Of a DNA stretch of 64,000 nt, positions 27,452 through 59,593 are shown piece after piece; the first letter of the stretch is position 1; each line of letters starts with the position of its first letter. This DNA is from Candidatus Latescibacterota bacterium (GTDB lineage Bacteria > Latescibacterota > UBA2968 > GCA-2709665). The stretch covers positions 4,704,001 to 4,768,000 of the forward strand of contig OZ250150.1 of the NCBI GenBank assembly GCA_965237675.1. The letters are read 5' to 3'. The notes beneath the pieces were generated by a model. The model saw nothing but the letters and a program-made list of their open reading frames with translations, was not told the origin of the DNA and did not search any database. Both the position numbers and the translations under genes were made by a program.

Positions 27452-27779
27452 CGCGTCACCTCTCTCTGGGGTTACCCCAGTTTAGTGGACGGTTCCTTAA
27501 CTGCACATTCAATGAGCATCCACAGCCAGAAACCTATCATGCCCAAGAGGAGGACAAGCAGGATTTCCCAAAGACCTATGCCGAACATTCTCGCCTCCCT
27601 TGTTTTCGGTCAATCGAATGGTTGATAATTATCTCGAGCTTTGGATTTAGGGAAGATCTGACTCGGGATTTCTCCGCTGTCGCATAAATCCAAGTATAGG
27701 AACGAGTGTTGATGGTGGGGAGGGTGGGGCTATTTTTGCACGCAATCACGGTTCTTCTGGGGGTGGTGGGGGCGATTTC

Positions 27780-27913
27780 TGCTAACTACGGTATTACCGA
27801 ACAGTTACGGTAATGCGTACCTGATCCGAAGATCTGCGAACGTTCGGGAACATTCCACGCTGAAGCTTGTAGCCCGAACATGTTCAGGAATGCTTCCTAT
27901 GGTGGCATCGTCT
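27780..27913 (-). other. attI-like platform site, copy 1
   Basis: Identity among the three copies starts at GCTAAC; ATTACCG-AACAGTTA-CGGTAAT palindrome. Confidence 0.75.
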
Positions 27914-28102
27914 CTAATCAAAAACTGCCTCCCTTTCTTCCATCAATGCATCCAGCGGGCTCTGGATTTTCGCGAGATCCCGATTCGTCACCCGAGTATA
28001 GATCTGTGTGGTCTTTGGGCTTACGTGCCCGAGCAACACCTGGATATATCGCAGGTCCGTCCCGCGTTCAAGCAGGTGTGTCGCAAAGGAATGCCGTAGC
28101 GT
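27914..28102 (-). pseudogene. 3' fragment of the tyrosine recombinase
   Basis: Encodes [26 protein letters not shown]...; near-identical to 53835-54023. Confidence 0.9.
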
Positions 28103-28481
28103 CGGTATCCGCTGGACAATTTTCGCTTTCTCGCAAGCCCAGTCAAACGCGGTCTGTACCGACCTCTCCCTGTGCTATCGGATTTCGCCAACCCATTGCG
28201 CCCAAAAAACGGGAGCAACTTAGTCGTGAAACTGAAATCCCAAGTCTCAAATATCGCCACTCACTCGAACCGCATCCATTCAACAATATCATCGAGAGCC
28301 TTGTCTTGATAGCTCACCGCGTCCTCCCGTCCTACAAAGCCATGAACAAAATCCGTGGAGGCAGTCGCCTTCCTTGGATCATCATTCCACACGTGATACT
28401 CCCTCAGCCCAATTACCGTCGTGGGCATACACATTATACGGGCTGACAATGCACTTGAAATCCAGCAGTATGCATAGTTCG

Positions 28482-28913: not shown

Positions 28914-29009
28914 CCAGTCCCCACATTGCTTTGTGAAAAAGTTATTATGACATACGAAAAAGGAACCCCACGGTAGTCGGTGTGTGCCATTCTTTGATTT
29001 CTTGCGTGC

Positions 29010-29092
29010 AGTCAACGATCTCACGGGCCGTGAACCTGCGAAGCAGGTTGGGCGACGGGCGTAAACCCGAAGGCGGGGGCACGGTGTTAGAC
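29010..29092 (-). other. attC-like site
   Basis: AGTCAAC...AACCTGCGAAGCAGGTT...GTTAGAC. Confidence 0.75.
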
Positions 29093-29128
29093 GAAGGGCA
29101 GTTTCGGTCAATGTCCCTACGACTTGGC

Positions 29129-30979: not shown

Positions 30980-31084
30980 ACGTTCATCACCTTGATGATC
31001 ATCCGTTGCGGATCACCTCGAACTGGATCGGATTGACTTCGGTCTTCGCATGCAACTACGGAATCTCCTTTAAGAAATGCCCTA

Positions 31085-32212
31085 TCAGGCCGGTGTTCCG
31101 TGCCAGAAATCGTTGTACGCCGCCAGCGGCCCGTCCCCGTGCGGCCCGGTAGCCAGATCCAGCCCCCCGAAGAGATAGACGGACTCGCCCCCCACTGTCA
31201 TAACGGGGATTCGCCTGACACCGGGACGTTCGGCGCCAGCAGAGTAATCCTCCGCACCGTTGTGTGGATATAGACAGTCCCACCGGCCGGCACGAAGATC
31301 GTACTGCCACAGATCGTTCAGCTGGGGGTGCTCCCCTTCCCCTCCTGCAAATCCTCCGAACAGATACAGGTGATCTCCGATCACAGCGTATCCCAGCCCG
31401 TACCGAGGGGAAGGCCGTGCAACATCATCCGACCGGTTCTCCTGAATGCAGGTCCAGGCGCCTCCGTCGGGATCGTATTCCCACAGATCGTTGTAGAACT
31501 CCGGCGCTCGACCCTGACTGTCCCGACCGCCCCACAGGTAGAGCCTGCCGTTCCAGCCGGCCAGCACGGGACAGTATCGTTTCGGCGGCCAACCGTTGCG
31601 TCCATTCGATGCAGGCCCCAGGTGCTCCCATTTCCCGGCCGGCGCCTTGTAGGTCCACAGCTGTGCGTGCGTCATCGCGCCATGGCCCCCCATCAGATAC
31701 AGGTAATCACCCAGAACGGCCGCCCCCATCCCGCCCGAACCGGCGGGACGATGCCCATCCGCCGTTATTCCTGATGCGCGCCCGTCGTCGGGCTCTAACA
31801 GCTCCCACGAGGCTGTCTTCGGATCGTAGGCCCAGAGATCGTTCAGCTTGATCTCCCTCTTGCCGGGGCCCCGCACTGAGGACCCGCCAAAAAGATAAAG
31901 CCTGCCGTTCACGGGCAGCCAGGTCGTGAGCTTCCGGGTACACGGTCTGGTATCGGACGGTCTGAACCCGATGCGCCCATCGTGGTCTTCCAACCGCGTC
32001 CACCGGCCTCGACCCGGGTCGTAGCGCCACAGGTCGTTCAATGAGCCCTGGACGGAAAGATCTCCAGGCCCTTTCGGCCGGCCGTACATCACTTTTATCC
32101 CCCCGAACAGGTAGACGCATCCATTGTAGCTCAACATCCCTCCGAAGGCCGCCCGCTTACAGGGTACATCCTCGGCTTGCTCCTGGTCTGGATGCAGCAG
32201 TTCCCACTTCAT
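31085..32212 (-). CDS. Kelch-repeat protein, copy 2
   Basis: Near-identical to 18916-20043. Confidence 0.9.
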   Translation of the reverse strand: MKWELLHPDQEQAEDVPCKRAAFGGMLSYNGCVYLFGGIKVMYGRPKGPGDLSVQGSLNDLWRYDPGRGRWTRLEDHDGRIGFRPSDTRPCTRKLTTWLPVNGRLYLFGGSSVRGPGKREIKLNDLWAYDPKTASWELLEPDDGRASGITADGHRPAGSGGMGAAVLGDYLYLMGGHGAMTHAQLWTYKAPAGKWEHLGPASNGRNGWPPKRYCPVLAGWNGRLYLWGGRDSQGRAPEFYNDLWEYDPDGGAWTCIQENRSDDVARPSPRYGLGYAVIGDHLYLFGGFAGGEGEHPQLNDLWQYDLRAGRWDCLYPHNGAEDYSAGAERPGVRRIPVMTVGGESVYLFGGLDLATGPHGDGPLAAYNDFWHGTPA

Positions 32213-32327
32213 AGTGGACCTCCGTACGGCCTAACTTGTGATTCTGGGTAGAAAGTTCGGCATATTCCATTCGTAGACGAAAAACTTGATGCAGTTTATT
32301 CGCCGTGGATGATTGTTGAACCCCTAA

Positions 32328-34015
32328 CCCGATTAATTCATGAATCGTCAGATAGAGCATTTTAAGGAAGCAGAAAGAGCTTCCGAGTGAGACAAGAAAC
32401 GAAAGCGCATGGGCTGTGACGGATTTGGCGTGTTCAAGCCGTTTGGGCGGCGCCTGCTTTGCCTCGTGACGTCAGGTTGACCTCGATGCCCGTGTCAAGC
32501 GCACAGACTTCTCCATGACCTTTGGTGGTGGTCGATGCAAATGTGAAGGCGGGGTCAGCACGTCGATGGGTTATGGAACACCCGTTGCCAGATTATAGAG
32601 GATCTTGCCATAAAGGTGTTTGAGTGGAAACGCCGTTGGCAGATGGAACTTGATCCTGGTTTTCAACTCACAAACGCGCCCGGCGACTTTCAAGAGACGA
32701 TTTTGCAGGGTATTGAACTGTGCGTTGGTCCACTTCGTGCCGCGCAATCCGATTGCAGCCAGGCTGTGCATCAGGACATAGGCGGCGCTGTGGAGAAAGA
32801 GACGGAAGTGATTGGCCTGGAAGGTGTGACAAGAGGTGCGATCGGAATGGAGAAAGGTCTTGTGATTCTTGATGAAGTTTTCCATCCTGCCGCGTGCGCA
32901 ATAGGCGGTTTTGTAGATGAATGACGGTTGGGCGCGCTTTAGGTTGGTGACCACGAATCGGATATTGTCTCCTTGCGGCGTCACCTCCGCCTTGCAGATG
33001 ATGCGTTGTGGACACGCCCAGGTGCCGGCCTGATAGGCCCAACAGCGATAAAGGCGCACGGTTTCGCCGGAAGCAGCATACCGCGTTTTGGCCTGGTCTA
33101 TCAAGGACTGTGCCGAGCGCAGGAGTTTGGCGTTGCCGTTCTGTCCGAGGACAAAATACACATTCTGGTCCTCACACAACACGTGCACTTCCGGACACGA
33201 AAAATGCGCATCGCCACGTAACAGGATCTCCACGTCGGGCCAGGCTTTACGCAGGTAGGCGATCACCCGTTTGAGGATGGTGACGATCTCTTTACCCGCA
33301 GGCCGCCTGCCAGGACGCAAGACCGTCGTGATCAACTTGCCGGTTTGGCCTTCATAGATATGCAGGGGCTGGTAGCAATAGCCATTGAAATACGCATTGA
33401 ACAACGACAACTGTTGAGACCCATACACCTTGTCTTCCGTGTCATCGATATCCAACAGAATGGCTTCCGGCGGTTCCTCATACGAGGCGACAAACACATC
33501 CGCAAAGGCCTTGGCGATCCGATACAAATCGGTTCTGCTGATCCGGTTCTCGAACCGACTCATCGTGGGCTGACTGGCCAGATCCGCACCGGAAAGCGGC
33601 AACCGATCACAGGCCGCCTTGAAGCCGGGATCCTCGCGCAACGTCTTGCAATCGTTCGCATCCTCATAGCCACAGGCCATCTGAAAGACACGTTGTTTGA
33701 TCAGGTCCGTCATCGAATGATGTACGTAACTTTGATGTCGATGATCGGTGAGCGCCGCAACCATCCGATGCAAAATGCCGACATTGGCCTCGACCTCACG
33801 AAGCAGCATCACCCCGACGTCGGTCGTCAGCACGCCCCCGTCGAACGTGGCTTCTACCTGCCTACCAGAAAGACTTGCGAAAGACAACCTGTGATGTTTA
33901 TCTTGAACTCCCACGGTAGTTTCCTCCTGTTTCATTGTTATTAGGTTATTTGCGTAACCATAATATAATACAATGACTTGGGTATGGAAACTACCTTTTT
34001 TGTGAATTATTCAGG
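32328..34015 (-). mobile_element. IS1380-family element, copy 2 (transposase 32571-33935)
   Basis: Same IRs; TSD CTAA; about 10 aa differences from copies 1 and 3. Confidence 0.92.
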
Positions 34016-34025
34016 CTAAATGGCT

Positions 34026-42603: not shown

Positions 42604-42618
42604 ACTGTCGCAAATTGC

Positions 42619-42701
42619 AGCTAACGTCTCCGCCGTGCCCGAACCACGAAAGCGGTTGCGCGAAGGGCGTAAGCCCGAAGCCGGGCACGGACGTGTTAGG
42701 C
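42619..42701 (-). other. attC-like site
   Basis: AGCTAAC-7nt-CCGTGCCCG...CGGGCACGG-4nt-GTTAGGC. Confidence 0.9.
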
Positions 42702-42790
42702 GGCGTTGCTGTTTTATATCTCAGCCCAGGAATACCCAATCTTGCCGGCTGAGAGGTACTATTCCCCAAGCTGCGAGAAGTTCGCGTCCC

Positions 42791-43603: not shown

Positions 43604-43633
43604 CTGATGTCTCCGGAGACGGGTTGCAATGCC

Positions 43634-43723
43634 GCCTAACGTTTCCGCTGTGTGCGAACCTGCCGCAGGCAGGTTGGGTCGGAGGGAGCGTAGCGACCGC
43701 AGCCGCACACGGACGTGTTAGCC
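43634..43723 (-). other. attC-like site
   Basis: GCCTAAC...TGTGTGCG...CGCACAC...GTTAGCC. Confidence 0.9.
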
Positions 43724-43882
43724 GGTTGTGCCGTTTTAGGGTATCGGTAAAGCCATAACGGGGCCGACATAACCTTCTTTTGTCTTTCTTGATTTTGACC
43801 TCCAAAAACTTCCAAGATAAAATAAATCGGCGGTATTAAGTCAAACCGCCGAGGTGGAGAGTTGCTTTTTCTTCTCAATGAG

Positions 43883-44152
43883 CTACAGAAAAAAGAAACT
43901 TCCCACACAGGCCGTAACTTTGACAATACTGTAGAGAAATTCAGGTGCGAAGTCGGCTTCATTCTTCCACATTATCGTATGTAGGTCAGGGTGAACTCGG
44001 AATTTCTTGAATTCCTCTTTATCCTTCAACGACTCAAAAACGGGACCCCATAGTTCATCTTTCAACTCTACCTCTCCCTCCACACCATCACTGAATTTGA
44101 GCCAGATCACATAGTCGCCTACATAGTGAGCTTCAATAACACGGGGTATCAT
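43883..44152 (-). CDS. DUF2442 protein (stop mutated, 8 aa longer than copy 2)
   Basis: GPVFE.L...W.NEADFAPE. Confidence 0.85.
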   Translation of the reverse strand: MIPRVIEAHYVGDYVIWLKFSDGVEGEVELKDELWGPVFESLKDKEEFKKFRVHPDLHTIMWKNEADFAPEFLYSIVKVTACVGSFFFL

Positions 44153-44156
44153 CTTC

Positions 44157-44414
44157 TCACTCCAAGGGTGCAATTTTATTCAACGGACGACGCTGGTCTG
44201 CGCGTTCCCAATTCTCCATCAGTTCTCTTTGGTGCAGATCATACCATTCCAGAACATGCCTCAGAGCCCGTCTAGGAAATTGGCCTGTCACAACGCCTGT
44301 CTCAATATCGACCGTGATGTCATATTCACCGTATGTGGCGTGAAAATGGGGTGGTCCGTGCTCACGATAAAACATACCAATCACGATCCCAAGAAAACGA
44401 CTAATCTCCGGCAT
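44157..44414 (-). CDS. DUF4160 protein (putative toxin)
   Basis: MPEISRFLGI...EHGPPHFHA...EL.ENW. Confidence 0.9.
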   Translation of the reverse strand: MPEISRFLGIVIGMFYREHGPPHFHATYGEYDITVDIETGVVTGQFPRRALRHVLEWYDLHQRELMENWERADQRRPLNKIAPLE

Positions 44415-44536
44415 AATTATATTTTACAATAATTTATAGGAAAATGCAACTACTTAATGACTTGCGCTTCAGGGTAGGGCTGGGGTTGTTTTTTGCCCCC
44501 TTTTCGATAAGGAATCAGACAAAAAAACGGCATGGC

Positions 44537-44679
44537 GGCTAACGGTCAAGCACCCACGAACCTGCCAAGCTGGCGCGGCGCTTGCCCCTCGCGATTTTCT
44601 TCAAGCAAGCGCCGTGACAGCGACAGGCAGGTTGCGCGGAGGCGCGGACGCGCCGAAGCCGGGGGTGCCGTTGTTATGC
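44537..44679 (-). other. attC-like site (long)
   Basis: GGCTAAC...GCACCC...GGGTGC...GTTATGC. Confidence 0.85.
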
Positions 44680-44801
44680 GAATCTGGCGCGGTCCCTTTC
44701 TGGCGAAGCCCTCATAGGGCCAGCGTAGAGCGGGCAACGATATCAGGTTTGTTGTGGCTGTTCCCCGAATCAGAATCAGCTGCGAAATGGTTCCGAAGTC
44801 T

Positions 44802-47646: not shown

Positions 47647-47733
47647 CGGTTTACACCTCAGGTGAAATGCTGGATCGACGTGTATCAGCGATTCTTTGCT
47701 TTTGGCGGCCAGGGATGGCCGCTCTGTCTTTGT

Positions 47734-48964
47734 GCCGCTTTCGGTTAACGGTTCTTGGCTTTACGACGTGGGCCAGTCCCAAAGGCCCATGTGCCCGCAG
47801 GGCCGAGGGGCGGATGCCCCGAAGCGTAAAGCCGGTGTTAGCCGTCGTTATTAATTCGTATCCGTTCATTGTCGGGGCCTTATGTATCAAAATGTAGCCG
47901 CTAACTCATTCAGACAGACTTCTCATTCACCAAAAAACGGGTACGGCTCGCCGGCTTCCACCAGCCTTTGTACCAGACTCGAGTACTTCAACACCTCCGT
48001 CAGCCGGGTGCGCCAATGCGGGGCGTAGAAGCCGACGAATTCCTGGAAGAACGCTCGCGCATCCTCACTGACGCCATCGAAGTATTGCGGCAGCAAAAAC
48101 CATGGCTGGTCACTGGCGTAGTTCAGCCCCCGCTGGCGCATCGTGAACTCTGCGGCGGCCCGTTTTTTTACCGAGATCATCAACGAGCGCCTGAGCTTGT
48201 CGGTGTGATAGCGGCCCCGATGAATGCACAACTGGGTAAACAGCACCGCGTCACCGGGTTCCTGGTGGAGACGAACGGCGCCAGGCATATCGTTCGAGCG
48301 GTTGTGGATCCCATCATCGGCGACGCAGATCGCGTGCTCTTCGGGGGAGTAGTCACGCAGGTGAGACCCCGGCACCACTTCGAGATCGTCGGTAGGGACC
48401 AATGCGATTTGCATCTGCAACCCGGCTCCGGTCTCCGGTCTCCGGGATACGTCTGCTTCTGCACCGATCTTGTCCTTGTGCCAAAATCCGTCCTGGCTTT
48501 CTCCGGTCGGATTACAGTAGAGACTGCTCAAGGCGAAGAGGAATTCTTCATCCAAGGCTGCGCTCAGCGATTCGACAACTTGGGGCGACCCCATGGCATT
48601 GAGCAGAAAGGCGAGATCGTCGGGGTGATCGCGGTGATATTCCGGGTCGTTCAGGTGCCTCATGTAATTGGCCTGGGGCCCCACCGGTGGATTGTCACAG
48701 CGAGGAGCGCGCCGCCACTGTTCCAGCACTCGCTCACAGATCTCGCGCAGCCGTTTTGTCGTCGCTGCGTCGAACAAACCGCGCACCACGGCGTAAGAGT
48801 GTTGGCGTAGCTGCCCAGGGCAGGGTTCAGTAGCAATACTCATTATATCCTCTTGTGTTGCTGTAAGAATTGCGTCGCAATTGGACTGTAAAAGTGCGGA
48901 CAGGCTGTCTCGTGCTGTCTAACTACGTATGGAAATCAATGCTCTATTAATTGCGGCTAACGTT
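47734..48964. repeat. Duplicate of the cassette at 20212-21442 (attC-like site + PhyH gene)
   Basis: Near identity, offset 27522. Confidence 0.95.
47923..48843 (-). CDS. PhyH-family dioxygenase, copy 2
   Basis: Protein identical to 20401-21321. Confidence 0.85.
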   Translation of the reverse strand: MSIATEPCPGQLRQHSYAVVRGLFDAATTKRLREICERVLEQWRRAPRCDNPPVGPQANYMRHLNDPEYHRDHPDDLAFLLNAMGSPQVVESLSAALDEEFLFALSSLYCNPTGESQDGFWHKDKIGAEADVSRRPETGAGLQMQIALVPTDDLEVVPGSHLRDYSPEEHAICVADDGIHNRSNDMPGAVRLHQEPGDAVLFTQLCIHRGRYHTDKLRRSLMISVKKRAAAEFTMRQRGLNYASDQPWFLLPQYFDGVSEDARAFFQEFVGFYAPHWRTRLTEVLKYSSLVQRLVEAGEPYPFFGE

Positions 48965-49065
48965 CGTTCTGGCCACTTGCGAACCCGCCGAAGCGTCAGC
49001 GTAGGCGGGTTGCCGTCAGGCCGAAGGGAGCGTAAGCGACCGAAGCGCAAGTGGACCTGTTAGCA
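48955..49065 (-). other. attC-like site
   Basis: GGCTAAC...CCACTTGCG...CGCAAGTGG-ACCT-GTTAGCA. Confidence 0.85.
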
Positions 49066-49155
49066 GCCGGTGCTTCGGTTCTTTGCCTCAAAAAGCCTTT
49101 CCATCACTTCCAAGCATCCACTCCAATTATCCCTGAATCTTTCGTGGACTTCTAG

Positions 49156-50843
49156 CCTGAATAATTCACAAAAAAGGTAGTTTCCATACCCAAGTCATTG
49201 TATTATATTATGGTTACGCAAATAACCTAATAACAATGAAACAGGAGGAAACTACCGTGGGAGTTCAAGATAAACATCACAGGTTGTCTTTCGCAAGTCT
49301 TTCTGGTAGGCAGGTAGAAGCCACGTTCGACGGGGGCGTGCTGACGACCGACGTCGGGGTGATGCTGCTTCGTGAGGTCGAGGCCAATGTCGGCATTTTG
49401 CATCGGATGGTTGCGGCGCTCACCGATCATCGACATCAAAGTTACGTACATCATTCGATGATGGACCTGATCAAACAACGTGTCTTTCAGATGGCCTGTG
49501 GGTATGAGGATGCGAATGATTGCAAGACGTTACGCGAGGACCCCGGCTTCAAGGCGGCCTGTGATCGGTTGCCGTTGTCTGGCGCGGACCTGGCCAGTCA
49601 GCCCACGATGAGTCGGTTCGAGAACCGCATCAGCAGAACCGATTTGTATCGGATCGCCAAGGCCTTTGCGGATGTGTTTGTCGCCTCGTATGAGGAACCG
49701 CCGGAAGCCATTCTGTTGGACATCGATGACACCGAAGACAAGGTGCATGGGTCTCAACAGTTGTCGTTGTTCAATGCGTATTTCAATGGCTATTGCTACC
49801 AGCCCCTGCATATCTATGAAGGCCAAACCGGCAAGTTGATCACGACGGTCTTGCGTCCTGGCAGGCGGCCTGCGGGTAAAGAGATCGTCACCATCCTCAA
49901 ACGGGTGATCGCCTACCTGCGTAAAGCCTGGCCCGACGTGGAGATCCTGTTACGTGGCGATGCGCATTTTTCGTGTCCGGAAGTGCACGTGTTGTGTGAG
50001 GAAGAAGATGTGTATTTTGTCCTCGGACAGAACGGCAACGCCAAACTCCTGCGGAAGGCACAGTCCTTGATAGACCAGGCCAAAACGCGGTATGCCGATT
50101 CCGGAGAAACCGTGCGCCTTTATCGCTGTTGGGCCTATCAGGCCGGCACCTGGGCGTGTCCACAACGCATCGTCTGCAAGGCGGAAGTGACACCGCAAGG
50201 TGTCAATATCCGATTCGTGGTCACCAACCTGAAGCGCGCCCAACCGTCATTCATCTACAAAACCGCCTATTGCACACGCGGCAGGATGGAAAACTTCATC
50301 AAAAATCACAAGACCTTTCTCCATTCCGATCGCACCTCTTGTCACACCTTCCAGGCCAATCACTTCCGTCTCTTTCTCCACAGCGCCGCCTATGTCCTGA
50401 TGCACAGCCTGGCTGCAATCGGATTGCGCGGCACGAAGTGGACCAACGCACAGTTCAATACCCTGCAAAATCGTCTCTTGAAAGTCGCCGGGCGCGTTTG
50501 TGAGTTGAAAACTAAAATCAAGTTCCATCTGCCAACGGCGTTTCCACTCAAACACCTTTATGGCAAGATCCTCTATAATCTGGCAACGGGTGTTCCATAA
50601 CCCATCGACGTGCTGACCCCGCCTTCACATTTGCATCGACCACCACCAAAGGTCATGGAGAAGTCTGTGCGCTTGACACGGGCATCGAGGTCAACCTGAC
50701 GTCACGAGGCAAAGCAGGCGCCGCCCAAACGGCTTGAACACGCCAAATCCGTCACAGCCCATGCGCTTTCGTTTCTTGTCTCACTCGGAAGCTCTTTCTG
50801 CTTCCTTAAAATGCTCTATCTGACGATTCATGAATTAATCGGG
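49156..50843 (+). mobile_element. IS1380-family element, copy 3 (transposase 49236-50600)
   Basis: Same IRs; TSD CTAG; protein identical to copy 1. Confidence 0.92.
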
Positions 50844-51079
50844 CTAGGATCCAAAGACCTTCGTAGTCTTTCAGATGAGGTATCGCGTCGGAATAGGGGA
50901 CCCTCCCCCATCCAGGTGGCAGATGGAGGTCGGTCTCACCATATCATGATTCGAACTGGGAAGACATTCGACTGCCCCTCTACTCCAAGATTCGACCTCT
51001 GTGGCTCTGTGGTGAGGCCTTACGATCCCGCTTCCGGGAAGGACGTTGGGATAACAGCCTGGCAAGGTCGATGATTCAA

Positions 51080-53353
51080 TCAGAACTCAGCGGCAATCAT
51101 CGCGTACTGTCCAATGTTCGTTAATATGGTTTCCAAGTGGTTTCCGTCGAACGTGACCTCCAGGTCATCTCCCGTGCAAACGTCCCACACGCGACGAGGA
51201 GTGCCCCGCTCCGTGAGCTGCCAGCGCAGGTTCACTTCGGGTATCGTGGTCACATAGTCAAACTGTGGGCTGAAGCGCGGCCAGATCCCCGGCAGATGCT
51301 CGACGCGCTCGCCGGTGTGATTGATCAGAAACAACACTTGGCTTCCCGGTTTCTCATTCGGAATCATCACGAGTTGGTTCGGGCCATCGGTCATCAGAGG
51401 CCGGCCCTCCGGGTAGAGCCAATCCACCACGGCGCCCAGAAGATCGCGGACCACCAGCAGGCGATATTCGAAATGAAGCTCCTCCACCGGCGCGGCCAGA
51501 TAGACGACGCGGCCCTTGCCAACCGTCCGGCAGGTGACGGCGGGACACAGAGCGTCGTCCTCGCGCCCGCCGAAGACGATGTTCGCCACCACGTCGGTTC
51601 CCGGCCGCGCTTGGACGAACTCGAACCGATTGAGCGGCCACAGCTCATGCGAGCACCCCTCGGCCAGCCATTGACCTGGAACGCAGCAGCCGTACGTGTC
51701 GAACGTCCCGGCGGCCCAGAGGTGTTGTTCGTAATCAGCGAATTGGTCGGGGTTCGGGTCCACGCGGTCCACGCCCAGAAGGTCCGCCAAGGCGAAGTTG
51801 TCGCGCATCTCATCGGGCTCGGCACCGTACAGGCTCGTCCGGTACGTCGCCAGGAGCCGCCCGCCCGCCTTCACATATTCCGTGATGCCTTCGACTTCCT
51901 CCCGCGTGAGATGGCCGACGTTGGGCAGAAGCAGAACGGGATACTTTGCCAACGCCGCTGGATCGGAGAGAACCCGCTCCTCGATCACCGATGTCGGCAA
52001 ATGGTTGGCCAGCATGGTCGAGAAGGCCCCGCGACGGCAGGATTGCTGCGGGGGCGTGCGCACGAGATAGCCCGCCTCGGAGAGCGGGGCCTCGAGCTCC
52101 CCCGGACGGTCGGCGAGGTCCTGCTTGGACTGGCCGATGACATCGTGCCGACGATCGCGCATCACCAGGGGCTCGGCGCGGAACCGCACCCGCTCGAGCA
52201 TCTCATACACCCGCACCGGCAAAACAAACGGAATAGCAACAAACGGTGACGGGTGGAGATCTTCGAAGAGTGATTCGTTCCTCTCCAGGATCTCAAGGAA
52301 CTCCGCCAGCTCACGATTGGCTTTATGGGGAGGCGACAGCCAAAGGTTCACGCCGCACGCCACCAGGACGGCCCCTCCGGAAGCAAAGCTGGCTGCCGCC
52401 TCCTCGACGAGTTCCATGCCGAAGCACTGCGCCCGCGACCAGCCCGTCAAGGCGCCGACGTATTGCCACATGGCCCAACCCGACGACTCGGCCAGACTGG
52501 CCGCCTCGAGCCGATGAAGGAAGTCGCCCCCGGCCTCGTAGAGGAATCCATCGTGCACCTCCACGATCCTGCGTTCGGGCCAGTCGCCCACACCCTGGCC
52601 GTGCGTCAGCACCGGGATGTCCTTCTTCTTTCGCGTCGCGGCGACGAATTCGAGAAAGACATCGCCGACGATCCTGCCGTACTGCAGGCTCCACTCTTCC
52701 AGCATCTCCTGGTCTTCCCGAGGCAGGCTGTGCGGATCGGGTGCATACGGCATTGGGCAGCCGAATTGCCTCTCGAACTTCTCGAGGCAATAGTCGCAGT
52801 AGCACAAGGGCGACTGCGGGGTGTGGTGCGAATGGTAAGGACAGGCAGAATCGGTGTAGATCGCGTCGACGTCGTGGTCCACCACTTGTGCGATGAAAGC
52901 GCAGATGGCCTCTCGGTACGGTGTGTTGAAGCAGACGTGCCGGTGAAATCCGCCGCCGTGGTGCCTCAGGACAGGAGCGTCGCCTTCGGGGCTGGGGCGG
53001 TACATCCACTCCGGATGATGGATCAGCATGTTGTCTTCGGGAATAATGTGCCCCACGGGAATGTACCCGATGACGCGCACGTCCCGCGCATGGGCCTCGG
53101 CGATGGTCTCGGCGAGCAGGTCGCGCTCACTTAATTGAGGGTGCGGGGGAAAGAACTCATTGGGGAAGACCGCCCATTTGCCCGCGCTGCCGAACCAAAT
53201 GGCGTTGGCGTGGTATTTCCGCACGACATCGACGAGCTGCTTCGCGTCAAAGTCGATGTCGGGCCAGAAGGGCGGGTGGTATTGCTCTATCTGAAAGGTG
53301 CGCGCCCGCCGTACCCACTCGTGACTTGGCTTGATCATAGCGATGACCTCCAA
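51080..53353 (-). CDS. Putative glycoside hydrolase (GHL6/GH42-like TIM barrel + trimerisation domain)
   Basis: FDA...; RDLLAE.I.EAH; HPEW; CFNTPY; CYCDYC...F; YV..GG.LLAT..TS. Confidence 0.7.
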   Translation of the reverse strand: MEVIAMIKPSHEWVRRARTFQIEQYHPPFWPDIDFDAKQLVDVVRKYHANAIWFGSAGKWAVFPNEFFPPHPQLSERDLLAETIAEAHARDVRVIGYIPVGHIIPEDNMLIHHPEWMYRPSPEGDAPVLRHHGGGFHRHVCFNTPYREAICAFIAQVVDHDVDAIYTDSACPYHSHHTPQSPLCYCDYCLEKFERQFGCPMPYAPDPHSLPREDQEMLEEWSLQYGRIVGDVFLEFVAATRKKKDIPVLTHGQGVGDWPERRIVEVHDGFLYEAGGDFLHRLEAASLAESSGWAMWQYVGALTGWSRAQCFGMELVEEAAASFASGGAVLVACGVNLWLSPPHKANRELAEFLEILERNESLFEDLHPSPFVAIPFVLPVRVYEMLERVRFRAEPLVMRDRRHDVIGQSKQDLADRPGELEAPLSEAGYLVRTPPQQSCRRGAFSTMLANHLPTSVIEERVLSDPAALAKYPVLLLPNVGHLTREEVEGITEYVKAGGRLLATYRTSLYGAEPDEMRDNFALADLLGVDRVDPNPDQFADYEQHLWAAGTFDTYGCCVPGQWLAEGCSHELWPLNRFEFVQARPGTDVVANIVFGGREDDALCPAVTCRTVGKGRVVYLAAPVEELHFEYRLLVVRDLLGAVVDWLYPEGRPLMTDGPNQLVMIPNEKPGSQVLFLINHTGERVEHLPGIWPRFSPQFDYVTTIPEVNLRWQLTERGTPRRVWDVCTGDDLEVTFDGNHLETILTNIGQYAMIAAEF

Positions 53354-53700
53354 AATCTGTACCGTCTTTTTTTACCCGCAGAGCCCGCGGAGAACGCAGA
53401 GAACGGCCTTCCATGATTCACGGCCGCTCATCATGATCGAGAAGCCGAGAAATATCAGGCTGAACCCAGCCAGCAGCAGCCCAAGCTCGGCTGTCGCCGT
53501 CAACTCAGGATCGTCCCGAGCAACAGGAGCAAAGTCAGAGAATGGACGAAAAACGCTCTGGTTGCCAGCGCTCCCACGTTTAACCCGAGGACCTCAACGA
53601 CCCTCCCCGCTGTCATGAGGATGGAAGCAGGAGTGCAGGTAACGCCGCAACCAGAGCGGCACGGAGGTCATTCGCAGTCATTGGTTTCGACTGGCATGGC

Positions 53701-53834
53701 TGCTAACTACGGGATTACCGAACAGTTACGGTAATGCGTACCTGATCCGAAGATCTGCGAACGTTCGGGAACATCCCACTTTGAAGCTTGTAGCCCGAAC
53801 ATGTTCAGGAATGCTTCCTATGGTGGCATCGTCT
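53701..53834 (-). other. attI-like platform site, copy 2
   Basis: GCTAAC 128 bp 3' of the recombinase stop; same palindrome. Confidence 0.78.
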
Positions 53835-54836
53835 CTAACCAAAAACTGCCCCCCTTTCTTCCATCAATGCATCCAGCGGGCTCTGGATTTTCGCGAGATC
53901 CCGATTCGTCACCCGAGTATAGATCTGTGTGGTTTTTGGGCTTGCATGCCCCAGCAACACCTGGATATATCGCAGGTCGGTCCCGCGTTCAAGCAGGTGT
54001 GTCGCAAAGGAATGCCGTAGCGTATGTATCGATATCCGCTTGTTAATATTGGCTTTCTTGCAAGCCCGGTCAAATGCTTTCTGAACTGATCGCTCGGTCA
54101 AATGCCGTCCCGGCCTTGCGCCCGGGAACAACCATGTTTCGGGTGGATATTGGCGCCTGTAGTCTTGAACCGCCTTCTGTGCGACCGCGGAGAGCATTGT
54201 GTAGCGATCCTTCCGGTGCTTGCCCTGACGAACATGAACCAGCTTTCGGTCCAGGTCGATGTCTTCGACCTTTAGCCGGACCACTTCACCCAATCGGAGG
54301 CCTCCGGAATAGGTCAACAGAATGATCGCCCGATGCTTCAGGTTTTCTACCGCATCCAGTAACCGAAGCACTTCGGGCCGGCTCAACACAGTGGGCAATT
54401 TGTGCTCTTTTTTCGGACGGGGCAGGTTTTCAAGCGGATGCTGATCTTTCAACACTCGAAGGAACAGGAATTTCAATGCACTTACGCACTGATTGACGTA
54501 ACTGTGCGAGGCTCCCGTTTCAAGGAGGTGATACACGTAATTTCGGACCTCCATCTCCCCAAAAGATCGAGGTGCCTTGCGGCAATAATTGGCAAATCGT
54601 CTGACGTGACCAAGGTACGCTTTTCGCGTTTTCGCGCGATACCCCCTGGGTTGTCTCACTCTATATTGGCACGTAGGGAAGGCCGGTTGTTCATCTGCCA
54701 TAAGCATTCGCGCATCGGTAACTGAGCGCATTCGGGGGCTGAAAAGCTTAAAGAGAATCCCCACAAAAACGGGAGCAAGAATGAGCAAAGCAATCACTAC
54801 AATTGAAGGATCGGGAACCATCGAATTCCCTTGCAA
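53835..54836 (-). CDS. Tyrosine recombinase (SAM-like N-domain + catalytic domain), no IntI I2 insert; true start uncertain
   Basis: [32 protein letters not shown]; family similarity begins near RGYRAKT (about 54650). Confidence 0.92.
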   Translation of the reverse strand: MQGNSMVPDPSIVVIALLILAPVFVGILFKLFSPRMRSVTDARMLMADEQPAFPTCQYRVRQPRGYRAKTRKAYLGHVRRFANYCRKAPRSFGEMEVRNYVYHLLETGASHSYVNQCVSALKFLFLRVLKDQHPLENLPRPKKEHKLPTVLSRPEVLRLLDAVENLKHRAIILLTYSGGLRLGEVVRLKVEDIDLDRKLVHVRQGKHRKDRYTMLSAVAQKAVQDYRRQYPPETWLFPGARPGRHLTERSVQKAFDRACKKANINKRISIHTLRHSFATHLLERGTDLRYIQVLLGHASPKTTQIYTRVTNRDLAKIQSPLDALMEERGAVFG

Positions 54837-54977
54837 CTGGTCAACCCTGAGCCCGGATTCTGTAATAGAGATTGGCTATCTGTGTACAAGCTAGACGTCT
54901 GTCGGAAGGTCTTTGTTATCGTGTTCAAATAGAAACCGGTGGATCTGTCAAGAACGAAAACGGCGCTGACATTCGTT

Positions 54978-55310
54978 CTAATCTTGCGTTTTCGTTTTAT
55001 GGGAAGCACCCACAGTCTCGTGGGTCTCCTTTAGTTCATCGCCTATCATGTCTATGCGGTTCGTCACTACAGAGATAGTCTGAACTCTCTCGTCGATACT
55101 TTCGATTGTCGAAAGGAGAGCCATAGAAGTGCCGCCCTGTTCACGCACTAGCTCGCTCTGTAACTGCAACTCGGTTAAGACGTGCTCCATTCGCGCACTG
55201 GCTTGCGACAACTGTCCTCGCATCGCCTCGATTTGAGCTAGTTGGCTTTCCTCTATGCCGCACGACTTAATCGAGGTTACGAGTAGAAGGAGGAATCCAC
55301 TCAATCCCAC
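54978..55310 (-). CDS. Hypothetical coiled-coil protein or fragment
   Basis: 110-aa ORF. Confidence 0.35.
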   Translation of the reverse strand: MGLSGFLLLLVTSIKSCGIEESQLAQIEAMRGQLSQASARMEHVLTELQLQSELVREQGGTSMALLSTIESIDERVQTISVVTNRIDMIGDELKETHETVGASHKTKTQD

Positions 55311-55513
55311 CGTCGCGCTGAACTTTAATACATCTAGGATCGTCGTCTAGAGGGTAAAGCCATAACGGGGCCGACATAACCTTCTTTTGGCTTTCTTGAT
55401 TTTGACCTCCAAAAACTTCCAAGATAAAATAAATCGGCGGTATTAAGTCAAACCGCCGAGGTGGAGAGTTACTTTTTCTTCTCTATGAGCTACAGAAAAA
55501 AGAAACTTCCCAC

Positions 55514-55759
55514 TCAGGCCGTAACTTTGACAATACTGTAGAGAAATTCAGGTGCGAAGTCGGCTTCATTCTCCCACATTATCGTATGTAGGTCAGGGTG
55601 AACTCGGAATTTCTTGAATTCCTCTTTATCCTTCAACGACTCAAAAACGGGACCCCATAGTTCATCTTTCAACTCTACCTCTCCCTCCACACCATCACTG
55701 AATTTGAGCCAGATCACATAGTCGCCTACATAGTGAGCTTCAATCACACGGGGTATCAT
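55514..55759 (-). CDS. DUF2442 protein, copy 2
   Basis: Near-identical to 43883-44152. Confidence 0.85.
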   Translation of the reverse strand: MIPRVIEAHYVGDYVIWLKFSDGVEGEVELKDELWGPVFESLKDKEEFKKFRVHPDLHTIMWENEADFAPEFLYSIVKVTA

Positions 55760-55763
55760 CTTC

Positions 55764-56021
55764 TCACTCCAAGGGTGCAATTTTATTCAACGGACGACGC
55801 TGCTCTGCGCGTTCCCAATTCTCCATCAGTTCTCTTTGGTGCAGATCATACCATTCCAGAACATGCCTCAGAGCCCGTCTAGGAAATTGGCCTGTCACAA
55901 CGCCTGTCTCAATATCGACCGTGATGTCATATTCACCGTATGTGGCGTGAAAATGGGGTGGTCCGTGCTCACGATAAAACATACCAATCACGATCCCAAG
56001 AAATCGACTAATCTCCGGCAT
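55764..56021 (-). CDS. DUF4160 protein, copy 2
   Basis: 1 aa difference from 44157-44414. Confidence 0.9.
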   Translation of the reverse strand: MPEISRFLGIVIGMFYREHGPPHFHATYGEYDITVDIETGVVTGQFPRRALRHVLEWYDLHQRELMENWERAEQRRPLNKIAPLE

Positions 56022-56143
56022 AATTATATTTTACAATAATTTATAGGAAAATGCAACTACTTAATGACTTGCGCTTCAGGGTAGGGCTGGGGTTGTCTTT
56101 TGCCCCCTTTTCGATAAGGAATCAGACAAAAAAACCGCATGGC

Positions 56144-56278
56144 GGCTAACTAAGGTATTACCGAACAGTTACGGTAATACGTAACAGATCTGAGAATCTC
56201 CGAACGTTCGGGAACATCCCACCTTGAAGCTTGCAGCCCGAACATGTTCAGAAATGCTGTCCTATGGTGGCATCGTCT
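56144..56278 (-). other. attI-like platform site, copy 3
   Basis: GCTAACTAAGGTATTACCGAACAGTTACGGTAATAC. Confidence 0.75.
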
Positions 56279-56520
56279 CTAATCAATACCTGCCTCCCTT
56301 TCATCCATCAATGCATCCAGCGGACTCCGGATCTTTGCGAGATCCCGATTCGTCACCCGAGTATAGATCTGTGTGGTCTTTGGGCTTACGTGCCCGAGCA
56401 ACACCTGGATATATCGCAGGTCCGTCCCGCGTTCAAGCAGGTGTGTCGCAAAGGAATGCCGTAGCGTGTGTATCGATATCCGCTTGTTAATATTGGCTTT
56501 TCTCGAAATCCGGTCAATCG
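56279..56520 (-). pseudogene. 3' fragment of the tyrosine recombinase
   Basis: [23 protein letters not shown]...SPLDALM. Confidence 0.9.
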
Positions 56521-56603
56521 TTTTCTGTACCAACTGCTCGTTGAATTGTCTCTCCAGCCTCGCGCCGAAACGTCAACCGGCGGTCACTCTTACCGCGCCA
56601 ACA

Positions 56604-57350
56604 TCACCTGTCCCCCCACCTATTGCGCAACTCGATGACGGTCAGCATGGTCACCTCCCCGGTGGGGTCTAATCCGGCATCGGCCTGAAACTTTTTCAAC
56701 GCCTCCCGGGTGGCCTCGTTCAGGACCCCGTCAACCGGTCCGGTGTCGTATCCCATCCGATTCAGGATCGTCTGCACCTCGTAGTTGTGCTCCGGCCCGG
56801 CGGGAATATCCGACTCCGATTCGGGTTCTTCCTGCTTCTCTTCAACCACCGCCGTATCCTCAGAGATCAGCACCCAGCGCAGGAGGCGGATCTCAAAGAG
56901 TACGGCCGCGGCTCCAACAATCCATAGCAGGCCGAATAGCAGCGCAATCCCCCATCGAATTGCCGGGTCCCCTTCCCCGCCAGCCGCCGGGTCGGAGCGA
57001 TCGAATACTTCGGGCGCAATCAGATAGCGCAGGCACAACCAGAGGCCGACATGCAGGAACGCGAGAACGATCGGCGTTCGGACCGGGACCCTGAGAGGCG
57101 ACCGTACAGGGCGCCAGAACCGGGCGATTGCAAGTGTCCAGAGATCGACCAGCGTCAGAAACAGAGGCAATCCCGCGAGGAAGCCGACGGCCCGATCCGC
57201 GGTATCGGCGCCCCGCATCCATGCCCACCATGCCGCGGCCAGAAACGCCACCGCCAGCACGGTCCATGTGCCAACACGAAGCAGCAAGGCGGCCCGTGAC
57301 CGCTCGGGTCTGGGCGTGGACGCGCCGGATTCAGGTTGAAGTCGGTTCAT
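56604..57350 (-). CDS. Membrane protein with C-terminal peptidoglycan-binding domain
   Basis: 4 TM segments; VQ..LNRMGYDTGPVDG...T.EAL..FQ..AGL..TG. Confidence 0.8.
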   Translation of the reverse strand: MNRLQPESGASTPRPERSRAALLLRVGTWTVLAVAFLAAAWWAWMRGADTADRAVGFLAGLPLFLTLVDLWTLAIARFWRPVRSPLRVPVRTPIVLAFLHVGLWLCLRYLIAPEVFDRSDPAAGGEGDPAIRWGIALLFGLLWIVGAAAVLFEIRLLRWVLISEDTAVVEEKQEEPESESDIPAGPEHNYEVQTILNRMGYDTGPVDGVLNEATREALKKFQADAGLDPTGEVTMLTVIELRNRWGDR

Positions 57351-57466: not shown

Positions 57467-59593
57467 ATGCGTCCACAATCCGAAATCCTCGCGGTCGAAC
57501 TGATCAATGGGAACCAGATGGCGTTCTACACCCGCGCCGGACGCGAGACCCATCCATTTTCGCCGTGGTTGCTGGTCGAGGCGCCGGAGGAGTGCGACCG
57601 CGCCGGCCTCTCCGGCGTCCGAAAAATAGCGCGTCTCAAGGGCGGCGGCCAGCTTCGGTTTCTGGTCCACTTCCACTCCTGGACCGATTATCTGGATGCC
57701 CGGGGACAACTGTCCGCGGACGGCGTTGCCCATTTCGACTTCAACAATCCGGTTAAACAACACCTGCTGCTCTCCGGAAACACGCTCTTTCGGGGCATGC
57801 GTTACAACGACGTCCACCGCCTTCAGCTGGATATCGAAACCACCGGCCTCAACCCCGAAGCGCCGGGGGCAGGTATTATTCTGATTGCGCTTTCCGACAA
57901 TAGAAGCTACGAGGAAGTGCTCGGCGCCCGAGGGATGTCCGAAGGCGCACTCCTCGAGGTCCTCAATCAGTGCATTCGGAGCCGCGACCCCGATATTATC
58001 GAAGGCCACAACATCTTTGACTTCGACCTCACCTACATCCAGGTTCGCGCCCGGGCCCTCAACGTCAACCTGACCTGGGGCCGGGACGGCTCCGAACTGA
58101 AAGCCGGGAACGGCTTGCGCCGATACCGGGTGGGCGCCCGCAGTCGCACCTTTCGTCCGGCCTACATTCACGGCCGCCACATTATTGACACCTATCACCA
58201 GGTCCAGCGATACGACATTGGCGGGCGCCTGGAGAGTTACGGCCTGAAGAACGTCGTTCGCGCGCTCGGCCTGGAGCGCGGGAACCGTGTCTTCGTCGAG
58301 GGGGCCGACATCCAGAAAACCTGGCGCAGCGACCCGGGCCGGGTGGTGAACTACGCGCTGGACGACGTCCGTGACGTTCGCGCGTTGAGCGAAATGGTCG
58401 CCACCACCGAATTCTACCAAACCCAGGTGCTGCCCTATCGGTTTCAGGACGTCGCGATTATCGGGCCCGGCGAAAAGATCAATGCCCTGATGATCGGGGC
58501 CTACCTCCGCCGGGGCCTCGCCGTTCCTCGGCCTCAGCACGCGGAGTCGTTTGGGGGAGGATATACCGAACTGTTTGACTCGGGCATCTTCAGCCGGGTT
58601 GTCAAGGCCGACGTGGAGAGCCTCTACCCTTCCATCATGTTAAACTACGGCATCCGACCCGGTTCCGATACGGAAAACGTATTCCTGCCCATGCTGCAGC
58701 GCCTGACCGGACGACGCCTCGAGGCCAAATCCAGCCTGAATGATGCCGAAACCGATGCCGACCGGTCCTACTGGGACGGACTGCAGGGAAGCTATAAGAT
58801 CCTGATCAACTCGTTCTACGGATACCTGGGGTACGGAAGGGCGAATTTCAACGACTATACGGCGGCGGCACGCATCACAAGCCTTGGCCAGCAGATTGCC
58901 CGGCAGGTTGTGGCGATGCTGCGGGAAAGGAACGCCCGGCTCATCGAAGCGGATACCGACGGCGTGTATTTCGTCCTGCCCCCCGGAATCGACACGGAAC
59001 GGGAAGAACACCTGTTCATCGAAGCACTCTCCGGAGAACTGCCAGAGGGCATCCACCTATCCCACGACGGCCGGTTCCGGGGTATGATCAGCCTCAAGGC
59101 CAAAAACTATATTCTGGTTGATTACGACGGTCGCCTGATCATCAAAGGCAGCAGTCTGCGCAGCCGGCGCGACGAGCGCGTTTTCCGTGAATTTGTCCGG
59201 AAGCTGGCCCCGCTGCTTATCAACCGACAGTCCGATGCCGCGTCGGCCCTATACATGGAATTCGCCGACCGCCTGCAGGCGGGTCAATTCGATCACAGAG
59301 AATTCTGCCGAAGGGAAAGCATCACCGAAAAGACGTTTTCGAATCCGAACCTGCGTCGGCTGGCCGCGGCCGCAGAGGGATGTGAAGTGGGAGACAGGAT
59401 TGCCGTCTACCAGAGAAACGACGGCAGCCTCGCGCGAATTGAAACCTACGCCAACGACGAAGACAGACGCTATCTGCTACGAAGACTGCACGATATGGCC
59501 GGACGCTTCCGTGCCCTCTTCGACGAAGCCGAGTTCGATCGGCTTTTTCCTCTCCTGAAACAATCCGCGAGTGAGCAACTCAGCCTGTTCTAG
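57467..59593 (+). CDS. polB: Family B DNA polymerase
   Basis: DIETTG, GHNIFDFD, YALDD exonuclease motifs; DVESLYPS, KILINSFYG, DTDG. Confidence 0.92.
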   Translation: MRPQSEILAVELINGNQMAFYTRAGRETHPFSPWLLVEAPEECDRAGLSGVRKIARLKGGGQLRFLVHFHSWTDYLDARGQLSADGVAHFDFNNPVKQHLLLSGNTLFRGMRYNDVHRLQLDIETTGLNPEAPGAGIILIALSDNRSYEEVLGARGMSEGALLEVLNQCIRSRDPDIIEGHNIFDFDLTYIQVRARALNVNLTWGRDGSELKAGNGLRRYRVGARSRTFRPAYIHGRHIIDTYHQVQRYDIGGRLESYGLKNVVRALGLERGNRVFVEGADIQKTWRSDPGRVVNYALDDVRDVRALSEMVATTEFYQTQVLPYRFQDVAIIGPGEKINALMIGAYLRRGLAVPRPQHAESFGGGYTELFDSGIFSRVVKADVESLYPSIMLNYGIRPGSDTENVFLPMLQRLTGRRLEAKSSLNDAETDADRSYWDGLQGSYKILINSFYGYLGYGRANFNDYTAAARITSLGQQIARQVVAMLRERNARLIEADTDGVYFVLPPGIDTEREEHLFIEALSGELPEGIHLSHDGRFRGMISLKAKNYILVDYDGRLIIKGSSLRSRRDERVFREFVRKLAPLLINRQSDAASALYMEFADRLQAGQFDHREFCRRESITEKTFSNPNLRRLAAAAEGCEVGDRIAVYQRNDGSLARIETYANDEDRRYLLRRLHDMAGRFRALFDEAEFDRLFPLLKQSASEQLSLF

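Follow-up and report, generated by a model that had tools for sequence, protein, structure and literature searches.

Integrons are defined and searched for by a domain specific to their integrase, IntI, which has been held necessary for the recombination of folded attC sites since 2001, when Messier & Roy reported this additional IntI domain to be required for activity (cited in PMC4889954). The locus considered here raises the question of whether a tyrosine recombinase without this domain can head an integron. It lies in a stretch of 64,000 nt (hereafter, the window; coordinates refer to it unless prefixed) of contig C1 of a Candidatus Latescibacterota genome (G000), where an integrase open reading frame (ORF) of 333 aa with a TTG start (53835-54836, minus strand) is found at the head of an array of attC-type sites. 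The results presented below indicate that this ORF is probably the decayed integrase of a non-canonical integron type, in which the integrase lacks the I2 insertion of IntI and its gene is co-oriented with the cassettes.

Pfam searches with the ORF returned matches to both Phage_int_SAM_4 (1.3e-15, residues 62-132) and Phage_integrase (PF00589; 2.1e-43, residues 151-310). The native integrase part of the protein (residues ~62-333, encoded at 53835..54653 on the minus strand) hence encompasses most of the SAM-like core-binding domain and a complete catalytic domain without I2. All the positions of the R-K-HxxR-H/W-Y catalytic set of tyrosine recombinases are present in the ORF, as a sequence-only reading of the locus had noticed, and they are invariant in an alignment of the window protein with eight homologs (A3, nine rows): R181 (GGLRLGE), K206 (QGK), H271 and R274 (HTLRH), H297 (LLGH) and Y306 (IYTRV).

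The same reading had placed about 62 aa between the KDR and HTLRH motifs and had proposed that the I2 insertion is missing. A count of the residues from K209-D-R211 to H271 gives 62, and three independent results agree that the IntI-specific, I2-containing insertion is absent from the window ORF. The IntI profile TIGR02249 aligns with the ORF in two blocks (profile positions 11-174 and 235-315), skipping positions 175-234. A phmmer comparison with VchIntIA (PDB 2a3v) was made with P0001, an intact homolog of 376 aa that is 97% identical to the window integrase (native part, residues ~62-333, against P0001 residues 107-373). It matched query residues 103-259 and 285-366 to chain residues 12-170 and 238-319, with chain residues 171-237 left unmatched and 25 P0001 residues standing opposite 67 residues of the VchIntIA chain. 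Over the same query span, moreover, the canonical IntI of relatives extend for 286-306 residues, and the complete rows of the window family for 254-268. The window ORF also scores below the cut-offs of both IntI models (214 bits against 265 for TIGR02249, and 140 against 435 for NF011946).

A blastn search of the window against its own genome outlined a mosaic of recurring modules, with repeats of ~90 nt on the module borders. These repeats follow the attC plan, with a 5' box (Y)TAAC, a 3' box GTTA(R/Y), an asymmetric internal loop and a long stem with covarying sides, and present a conserved branched tip in this lineage. A covariance model derived from Latescibacterota attC-type sites only (R1, run with filters off) located 29 such sites at E<=1, 22 of them at E<=1e-3, all on the minus strand between 4563 and 49066. 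Examples include 21430-21517, 22469-22560, 42616-42702, 18122-18207, 43631-43724 and 29007-29093, as well as 15878-15967, 14802-14899, 11682-11768, 48952-49066 and 44534-44680. RNAalifold analysis of 28 sites yielded 17 pairs, 14 of them with compensatory changes. In a set of 69 distinct sites drawn from several phyla, pairing is observed in 90.5% of cells (60% in shuffles), and the covariation score reaches 0.613, against 0.163 in the shuffles (0 of 500 attain it) and 0.07-0.11 in slid-partner controls. The genes between these sites are mostly single, small and encoded on the minus strand, like the integrase, and comprise methyltransferases, NUDIX, HAD and HIT hydrolases, APH-family kinases, toxin-antitoxin parts and Kelch, ankyrin and PhyH proteins. 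The array is hence a co-oriented attC cluster bounding mostly single-gene cassettes, and resembles sedentary integron arrays in gene content and site layout.

The segment following the integrase gene is conserved for ~140 bp after the stop codon and ends in GTTAGC. Conservation of this flank among eight copies, taken from the window and from four other genomes, extends to ...CCGTAGTTA (GTTA), and the sequences diverge straight after it. The last ~255 bp of the gene and the 140 bp of 3' flank are present in the window as three direct copies with 88-92% identity (53694-54115, 56137-56559 and 27779-28168), and partial copies of the gene end and flank occur at C1:4611078 and C1:1412981. The flank of the window ORF spans 53707..53834 and ends in ...ATTACCGTAACTGTTCGGTAATCCCGTA|GTTAGC, with the G of GTT at 53707. 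A second flank (56150..56278, with the G of GTTAGCC at 56150) follows an integrase 3' remnant at the outer edge of the array (56279..56566, residues ~239-330, 83% aa identity, Phage_integrase 5.6e-19), and a third (27786..27919, with the G of GTTAGC at 27786) follows another remnant inside the array (27920..28168, residues ~245-332, with one TAG codon). All of these features are on the minus strand.

Comparison of cassette copies provides evidence on how this flank has been used. The first cassette behind the flank of the window ORF (50960..53706, minus strand) carries a GHL6-family glycosyl-hydrolase-like gene (51080-53353, Pfam) and has lost its own attC beside an insertion sequence (IS). 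A copy with 96.7% identity at C1:1409466-1412215 is preceded by a typical attC site and has an attC at its end, and when the junction at 53707 is set against the attC at C1:1412215, the identity of the two contexts starts exactly at GTTAGCAGCC. A third context is provided by one of the public runs holding parts of the window stretch (X17), in which the match of a contig with the GHL6 cassette stops at 53707, at GTT, and a different attC-like end follows. Likewise, a cassette with a DUF4160/DUF2442 gene pair (Pfam; 55353..56149, minus strand) has a second copy at 43746-44543 (98.7% identity), one copy being joined to the second flank at 56150 and the other to the attC at 44534-44680, with identity starting exactly at GTTAGCC. 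A third cassette (20208-21442, repeated at 47730-48964) lies behind two different attC sites with the same GTT junction. In all three pairs identity thus starts exactly at GTT, and in two of them one copy lies behind the flank and the other behind an attC. Since cassettes are shared between flank and attC sites and joined exactly at GTT, the flank appears to behave as an attI site beside the integrase gene, and the footprints are, as far as the compared sequences tell, those expected of integron-type insertion at G|TT. An SSV-type split integrase, or an element integrating into its own integrase gene, had also been considered for the three direct copies of gene end and flank, and was dropped because the flank proved to be a cassette junction.

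Genomes of 61 relatives at family to class level, including 14 other congeners of G000, were searched for integrases and sites. No gene in G000 or its 14 congeners exceeds the TIGR02249 cut-off, and canonical IntI at or above this cut-off were detected in 6 of the 61 relatives. R1-type attC sites, in turn, were detected in 39 of the 61 genomes, among them 13 of the 14 congeners. They are missing from four of the six genomes that carry a canonical IntI, and the fetched canonical IntI loci of relatives returned 0 hits with R1 or with a broader covariance model (R2). Among twelve loci of relatives with homologs of the window integrase (43-97% identity, tblastn; the lower figure is the full-length alignment of L039, elsewhere listed at 49%), eight present attC sites downstream on the same strand, one (L036, in G016) presents them on the opposite strand, and three have no attC, one of these being of the IS91 type.

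The same layout was observed among 80 loci drawn from all prokaryote species genomes, of which 49 have no Y2 transposase nearby and 31 were classed as Y2-linked. R1 returned 29 hits in 11 of these loci; every hit lies downstream of the integrase, and 23 share its strand. R2 returned 77 hits, with a marked asymmetry where no Y2 transposase is nearby: these 49 loci gave 0 hits over 342,554 bp of sequence upstream of the integrase and 76 over 195,301 bp of downstream sequence, and 69 of the 76 share the strand of the integrase. Two or more R2 hits were identified in 14 of the 18 non-Y2 loci with at least 5 kb downstream, and the 31 Y2-linked loci contributed 1 hit in all. In the complete genome of Desulfitobacterium sp. 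Sab5, 11 attC hits were obtained in the array behind a 385-aa integrase, and an attC lies after 10 of its 11 co-oriented ORFs (the listed start of one ORF, 18256-18774, overlaps the preceding attC), and Rfam searches of this array gave just three chance miRNA/snoRNA rows. Further array hosts include Peptococcaceae, Paenibacillus solani, Halanaerobacter, Alkaliphilus and Proteiniborus, together with metagenome-assembled genomes (MAGs) from Limnochordia, Spirochaetia and Dehalococcoidia, the last with an opposite-strand array. Co-oriented arrays are hence found in Latescibacterota, Clostridia, Paenibacillus, Halanaerobiales and Spirochaetia.

The closest protein of known structure is VchIntIA (2a3v), both in sequence (5e-43) and in fold (Foldseek E 5e-16). 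A quick maximum-likelihood tree of 88 rows (14 duplicate rows dropped), rooted on two Xer-like genes of G000, places the window family beside IntI and away from the two Xer rows, from which the ingroup is separated with a Shimodaira-Hasegawa-like approximate likelihood ratio test (SH-aLRT) support of 100. Three canonical IntI form one clade (SH-aLRT 98) and all the I2-less sequences another (93), and both clades, together with a stray row (L121), branch from an unresolved node within the ingroup. Integrases linked to IS91-type transposases form a single clade (SH-aLRT 97) nested inside the I2-less clade that includes the window gene. The sequence-only reading had likened the window protein to such integrases. 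They are indeed true relatives, with 41-51% identity to the window gene, but the likeness does not extend to genomic context, given that a tblastn search of the whole of G000 returned no match to the Y2 transposase (E<=1e-5). In 29 of the 31 Y2-linked loci the integrase lies immediately upstream of a Y2_Tnp/Zn_Tnp_IS91 transposase gene, and in L061 and L053 it lies ~1.1 and 1.6 kb from it, respectively. The IS91-linked forms are 283-284 aa long, present no additional N-terminal domain and are part of a multicopy element of ~2.5 kb. Lacking an adjacent Y2 HUH transposase and a multicopy habit, the window gene belongs to the array-heading part of the family, which bears an N-terminal domain.

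Several observations on the IS91-type elements concern integron loci. In G017, one copy with its integrase (L135, G017:C1:2493564-2495721) lies 419 bp downstream of a full-length canonical IntI, and a second lies ~420 bp after an IntI fragment above the cut-off (profile positions 120-315, in a 208-aa frame). Another copy, on a Nitrospirae contig (L102), is located 1.7 kb from an IntI-like gene, and in G020 (L140 and L141) four of the six copies either closely precede a same-strand attC array or lie within one. It is possible that IS91-integrase elements use integron attachment sites as targets, or that they mobilise arrays. R2 also gave weak hits (25-28 bits) at the transposase-distal end of the element (L040:8821-8899, L140:5925-6003 and L141:6461-6539), where an attC-like hairpin may form its terminus.

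Intact members of the array-heading family are ~360-390 aa long, with a HARP-like domain at the N-terminus followed by the SAM-like core-binding and catalytic domains, the latter without I2. In the structural model of P0001 (mean predicted local distance difference test score 86.6, and ~90 over residues 13-68), residues 13-68 adopt a compact beta-beta-alpha-beta-beta-alpha domain, and a relaxed Pfam scan matched 19 of 23 N-terminal segments to HARP (PF07443) at E<=0.1, with a best value of 4.4e-6. HARP domains bind forked DNA, and the UvsW N-domain, the MotA C-domain and XPB present folds that are grouped with HARP as structure-specific DNA binders. In the structure paper on VchIntIA, the I2 helix is reported to contact extrahelical bases. 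The HARP-like domain would be the best candidate for recognition of the folded attC, or of an attI arm, in place of I2. The presence of an array with an attI-like flank turns the suggestion of the sequence-only reading, that the protein recognises hairpins in a different way, into a concrete and plausible hypothesis.

The window copy no longer carries this domain. The sequence-only reading had considered the first ~60 residues of the ORF foreign and its 5' end rearranged, and both proposals are confirmed by the comparative data. Homology to relatives begins at about residue 61-62, with divergence in A3 located exactly before RGYRAKT, and homologs of 360-390 aa align solely to ORF residues ~62-333. 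Immediately before this point, a solo IS terminus of 29-30 bp (54650..54679, minus strand) is fused in frame to the integrase and marks its truncation point. This segment matches at 100% the termini of a repeated element at C1:932608, 3052251 and 4901922, where the three full copies of the IS share a common interior and differ in their outer flanks. The remaining 5' part of the ORF (54680..54836, minus strand) encodes ~52 hydrophobic residues that are not integrase-derived, and no homolog aligns with its translation except that of G008, which carries the same fusion. In contigs of runs X17 and X2, the match with the window ends at 54648 and 54644, and the sequence then continues with native residues (LEEMVKELR and EMAKELRLR), as in intact homologs. 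The IS remnant and these contigs together indicate, at the level of sequence, that ~107 native residues have been lost and replaced by ~60 foreign ones. Mapped on the P0001 model, the lost part includes, besides the domain at residues 13-68, a disordered linker and helix 94-106, the first of the core-binding domain.

The shared fusion in G008, together with the separation of N-domain and core into different frames in G012, indicates that the gene is decaying across the genus of G000. This genome holds one near-complete integrase copy plus fragments, with no intact copy and no copy of the N-terminal domain of intact members anywhere in it. Having lost the HARP-like domain and the first core-binding helix, the window copy is probably inactive. 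The foreign 5' end of the ORF is supplied by the segment between the DUF4160/DUF2442 cassette and the integrase (54837-55352), which includes a 110-aa coiled-coil-like ORF of no family (54978-55310) and was probably brought in by the same rearrangement, since the cassette upstream is without its attC. In contigs of the four public runs compared (X15, X16, X17 and X2), a single weak joint was observed over 52800-57200, which connects 54677 with 55115 (one contig, side 28). Joints indicative of cassette excision were not detected, an absence that is uninformative in contigs.

The integrase 3' fragments all begin near residue 238-245, just past the WLFPG codons, and each is followed by an attI-like flank. 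They were identified at 56137-56566 and 27779-28168 in the window, at G003:C61:11823-12089 and at three places in G015, and the fragment inside the window array is a mosaic, with its 5' part resembling the other window fragment and its 3' part the full copy. The common break point may correspond to a secondary recombination site in the gene, or to one old deletion that was later copied.

The integrase gene lies on the cassette strand and has the attI-like flank at its 3' end, extending to ~140 bp after the stop codon. In the mechanism that we propose, the enzyme would recombine the attI-like site with folded attC sites, and attC sites with each other, with crossover at G|TT as in classical integrons, and its HARP-like domain would read the folded attC or an attI arm, replacing the I2 helix. 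In the window copy, an IS-associated deletion has removed this domain together with the first helix of the core-binding domain. Extending this reading beyond the window, we lean towards the view that I2-less, HARP-domain recombinases are true integron integrases and constitute a second class of these enzymes, both ancient and widespread. Their genes would be co-oriented with the cassettes and have attI at the 3' end, and the attC arrays that they run would be those of Latescibacterota, Clostridia, Bacilli, Halanaerobiales, Spirochaetia and Dehalococcoidia. The HARP-like domain would stand in for I2 in this class, and the integrases of IS91 elements would be descendants in which a rolling-circle transposase partner has taken the place of the HARP domain.

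An alternative explanation is that the window gene is a passenger, the integrase of a mobile element that targets attachment sites or array heads, and that the arrays were built by a since-lost canonical IntI. The IS91-integrase elements supply the arguments for such a scenario, as they are ~2.5 kb long and multicopy in G020 (six copies) and G017 (three copies), sit upstream of or inside same-strand attC arrays in four of the six G020 instances, and adjoin IntI sequence in two G017 copies and, at 1.7 kb, in L102; canonical IntI are also present in 6 of the 61 relatives. We nonetheless regard it as unlikely, because G000 lacks the Y2 transposase, the N-domain form is single-copy per array and located at its outer edge, no attC lies upstream of it in 342 kb, and the conserved flank is itself a cassette junction. 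Moreover, most of the IntI-bearing relatives (four of six) lack R1-type attC sites, no R1 or R2 hits were obtained at canonical IntI loci, and the same layout is present in Firmicutes, for which the IntegronFinder 2.0 report (PMC9024848) gives one complete integron in all and a few clusters of attC sites lacking integrases (CALINs).

The damage at the 5' end of the gene and the two further integrase fragments nearby could also suggest an ordinary canonical IntI with a private I2 deletion, that is, a pseudogene artefact of this locus. This explanation is scarcely credible given that the I2 segment is absent in every homolog examined (9 of 9 rows in A3 and 79 of 79 in a larger alignment, A6), that family rows span 254-268 aa where canonical IntI span 286-306, and that identity to the canonical IntI of relatives is only 35-36%. 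The chance presence beside the array of a Xer-type dimer resolvase, or of a prophage or island integrase, is very improbable as well. The NCBIfam XerA_Arch model does match at 218.6 bits, 1.4 under its cut-off, and models for XerC and XerD match too, but the latter remain far under their cut-offs (194 against 335 and 186 against 330). G000 also encodes two other Xer-like genes, with 33-37% identity, the window contains no tRNA gene or phage genes, and the bias of attC sites in strand and position across phyla cannot be due to chance.

Set against these alternatives, the interpretation of the window ORF as a decayed integron integrase has several results to contend with. Recombination itself is inferred from sequence comparison, and near-identical cassette copies could arise by other routes too. 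The ends of one duplicate (18835-20143 and 31004-32312) do not coincide with attC sites, and for one cassette the right-hand identity continues ~16 nt beyond its GTT. The attC sites are on the opposite strand in G016 (L036) and in the Dehalococcoidia MAG (L046), and no array was found at 4 of the 18 well-flanked loci (L052, L099, L106 and L107) or at the Latescibacterota loci L035 and L043. G020 presents 63 attC hits with only IS91-linked integrases, which implies that forms without the N-domain can also stand at the head of an array. The assignment of the N-terminal domain is also affected: all reported HARP scores fall below the 25-bit gathering cut-off (17.6 bits for the first member and 13.4 for P0001), a VIA-align wide fold search with this domain alone gave no clear match (best Z 5.5), with the T4 UvsW N-domain, the T4 MotA C-domain and archaeal XPB at Z 3.7-4.7, within noise, and the best protein atlas score for P0001 residues 1-95 was 0.84, to unnamed clusters and under the 0.9 lead level. 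Other points concern the models and samples. The training of R2 partly used hits from 10 of the 80 loci later scanned (L049, L054, L062, L064, L066, L082, L089 and L097 were new to it), covariance model E-values are rough, relatives are non-independent samples, the alignment behind the attC pair counts had been fitted to the model, and the tree includes only two Xer and three IntI rows as outgroup and reference. Lastly, Cury et al. 2016 (PMC4889954) described four recombinases, near fewer than three attC sites, as 'intermediate between IntI and Xer', and concluded that enzymes of this kind are not IntI.

Other features of the window relate to the state of its array, which is broken up by four IS copies. 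Three of them (23937-25630, 32325-34018 and 49153-50846) belong to a single DDE_Tnp_1_4 element of 1.7 kb, with 98-100% identity and more than 15 other places in the genome, and one of these copies removed the attC of the GHL6 cassette; the fourth is an IS with a DUF772-type transposase (7818-9635). A 69-bp repeat with 95.7% identity (11890-11958 and 28399-28467) occurs in two different cassettes, outside the attC sites. Searches against Rfam identified no family at gathering score over the window, and none at E<=1 over 14000-23500. A tRNA-targeting island had been considered as well, and was dismissed because the tRNA scan of the window was empty. Further attC sites and copies of the attI-like flank occur elsewhere in C1, in a second small array with five R2 hits (1405615-1413110) and at a place ~95 kb upstream of the window (C1:4608793-4611352). 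Matches obtained with nhmmer at 4.63-4.70 Mb suggest that the array region may span ~150 kb. With its two extra copies of integrase 3' remnant and attI, the ~50-kb array, ridden with IS copies, is probably sedentary and largely frozen. Just outside its head lie a gene for a PG_binding_1 membrane protein (56604-57350) and, after it, one for a 708-aa family-B DNA polymerase (57467-59593, plus strand; DNA_pol_B 3.6e-16, exonuclease domain 6.7e-12). Most of the public runs holding parts of the window stretch (X1-X20) are labelled as sponge metagenomes, and the organism is probably a sponge-associated member of the Latescibacterota.

If the proposed interpretation is correct, the map of integron distribution would change, Gram-positive bacteria included, and many CALINs, as well as the near-absence of integrons from Firmicutes, would be artefacts of an I2-based definition of IntI. 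Whether I2 was gained by IntI or lost in the window family would become a testable question. The family would represent a second protein solution, possibly of HARP type, for the recognition of folded single-stranded DNA, with relevance to the mechanism of recombination and to cassette shufflers in synthetic biology, and the integrases carried by IS91-family elements could be given an evolutionary origin. For G000 itself the implications are more modest, since the integrase there is a broken relic and the large array that it heads is sedentary and IS-ridden. Searches of the open-access PMC and bioRxiv literature retrieved no account of attC arrays with an I2-less or HARP-domain recombinase at their head.

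Among known systems, the window family is closest to canonical IntI (VchIntIA/IntI4, TIGR02249), with which it shares the catalytic set, the nearest solved sequence and fold and a neighbouring clade, as well as the position at the head of an attC array, a proximal attachment site and the G|TT junction. It differs in lacking the ~40-60-residue I2-containing insertion on which the intI_Cterm profile of IntegronFinder is based, in the HARP-like N-domain of its intact members, and in a gene that is co-oriented with the cassettes and has attI at its 3' end. The Treponema-type 'reverse integrons' of the inverted group also encode their integrase on the attC strand. Integrases of this group carry the IntI insertion and pass IntI profiles. 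An 'inverted integron-integrase' group of chromosomal integrons is mentioned in PMC4889954 and in the abstract of 10.1101/2020.05.09.085589. The tyrosine recombinases of IS91 elements present the same SAM_4 and Phage_integrase architecture without I2, at 41-51% identity and in the same clade, but have no HARP-like N-domain, adjoin a Y2_Tnp/Zn_Tnp_IS91 gene, are multicopy and, outside Latescibacterota, are associated with 1 attC hit in 250 kb. XerA, XerC and XerD share the fold and domain order (NF040815, 218.6 bits against 220; PDB XerA 5hxy, 5e-35), and the window family is set apart from them by its extra N-domain and cassette-array context, with no indication of a dif-type role.

As its neighbouring recombinase lacks the intI_Cterm region, the window array would presumably be classed as a CALIN under the IntegronFinder definition (Cury et al. 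2016). Unlike a CALIN, it is headed by a conserved recombinase family with its own attI-like flank, and is hence not integrase-less. Two surveys contain observations that are of interest in this regard: 50 recombinases without intI_Cterm near attC sites are noted by Cury et al. 2016 (PMC4889954), including the four intermediate cases discussed above, and a Breaker-lab survey (PMC8632094) presents motif OTH-22-1 as a probable new attC variant and names no recombinase for it. The recombinase falls outside IntI as currently defined, and by anatomy and junction footprints the locus appears to work like an integron.

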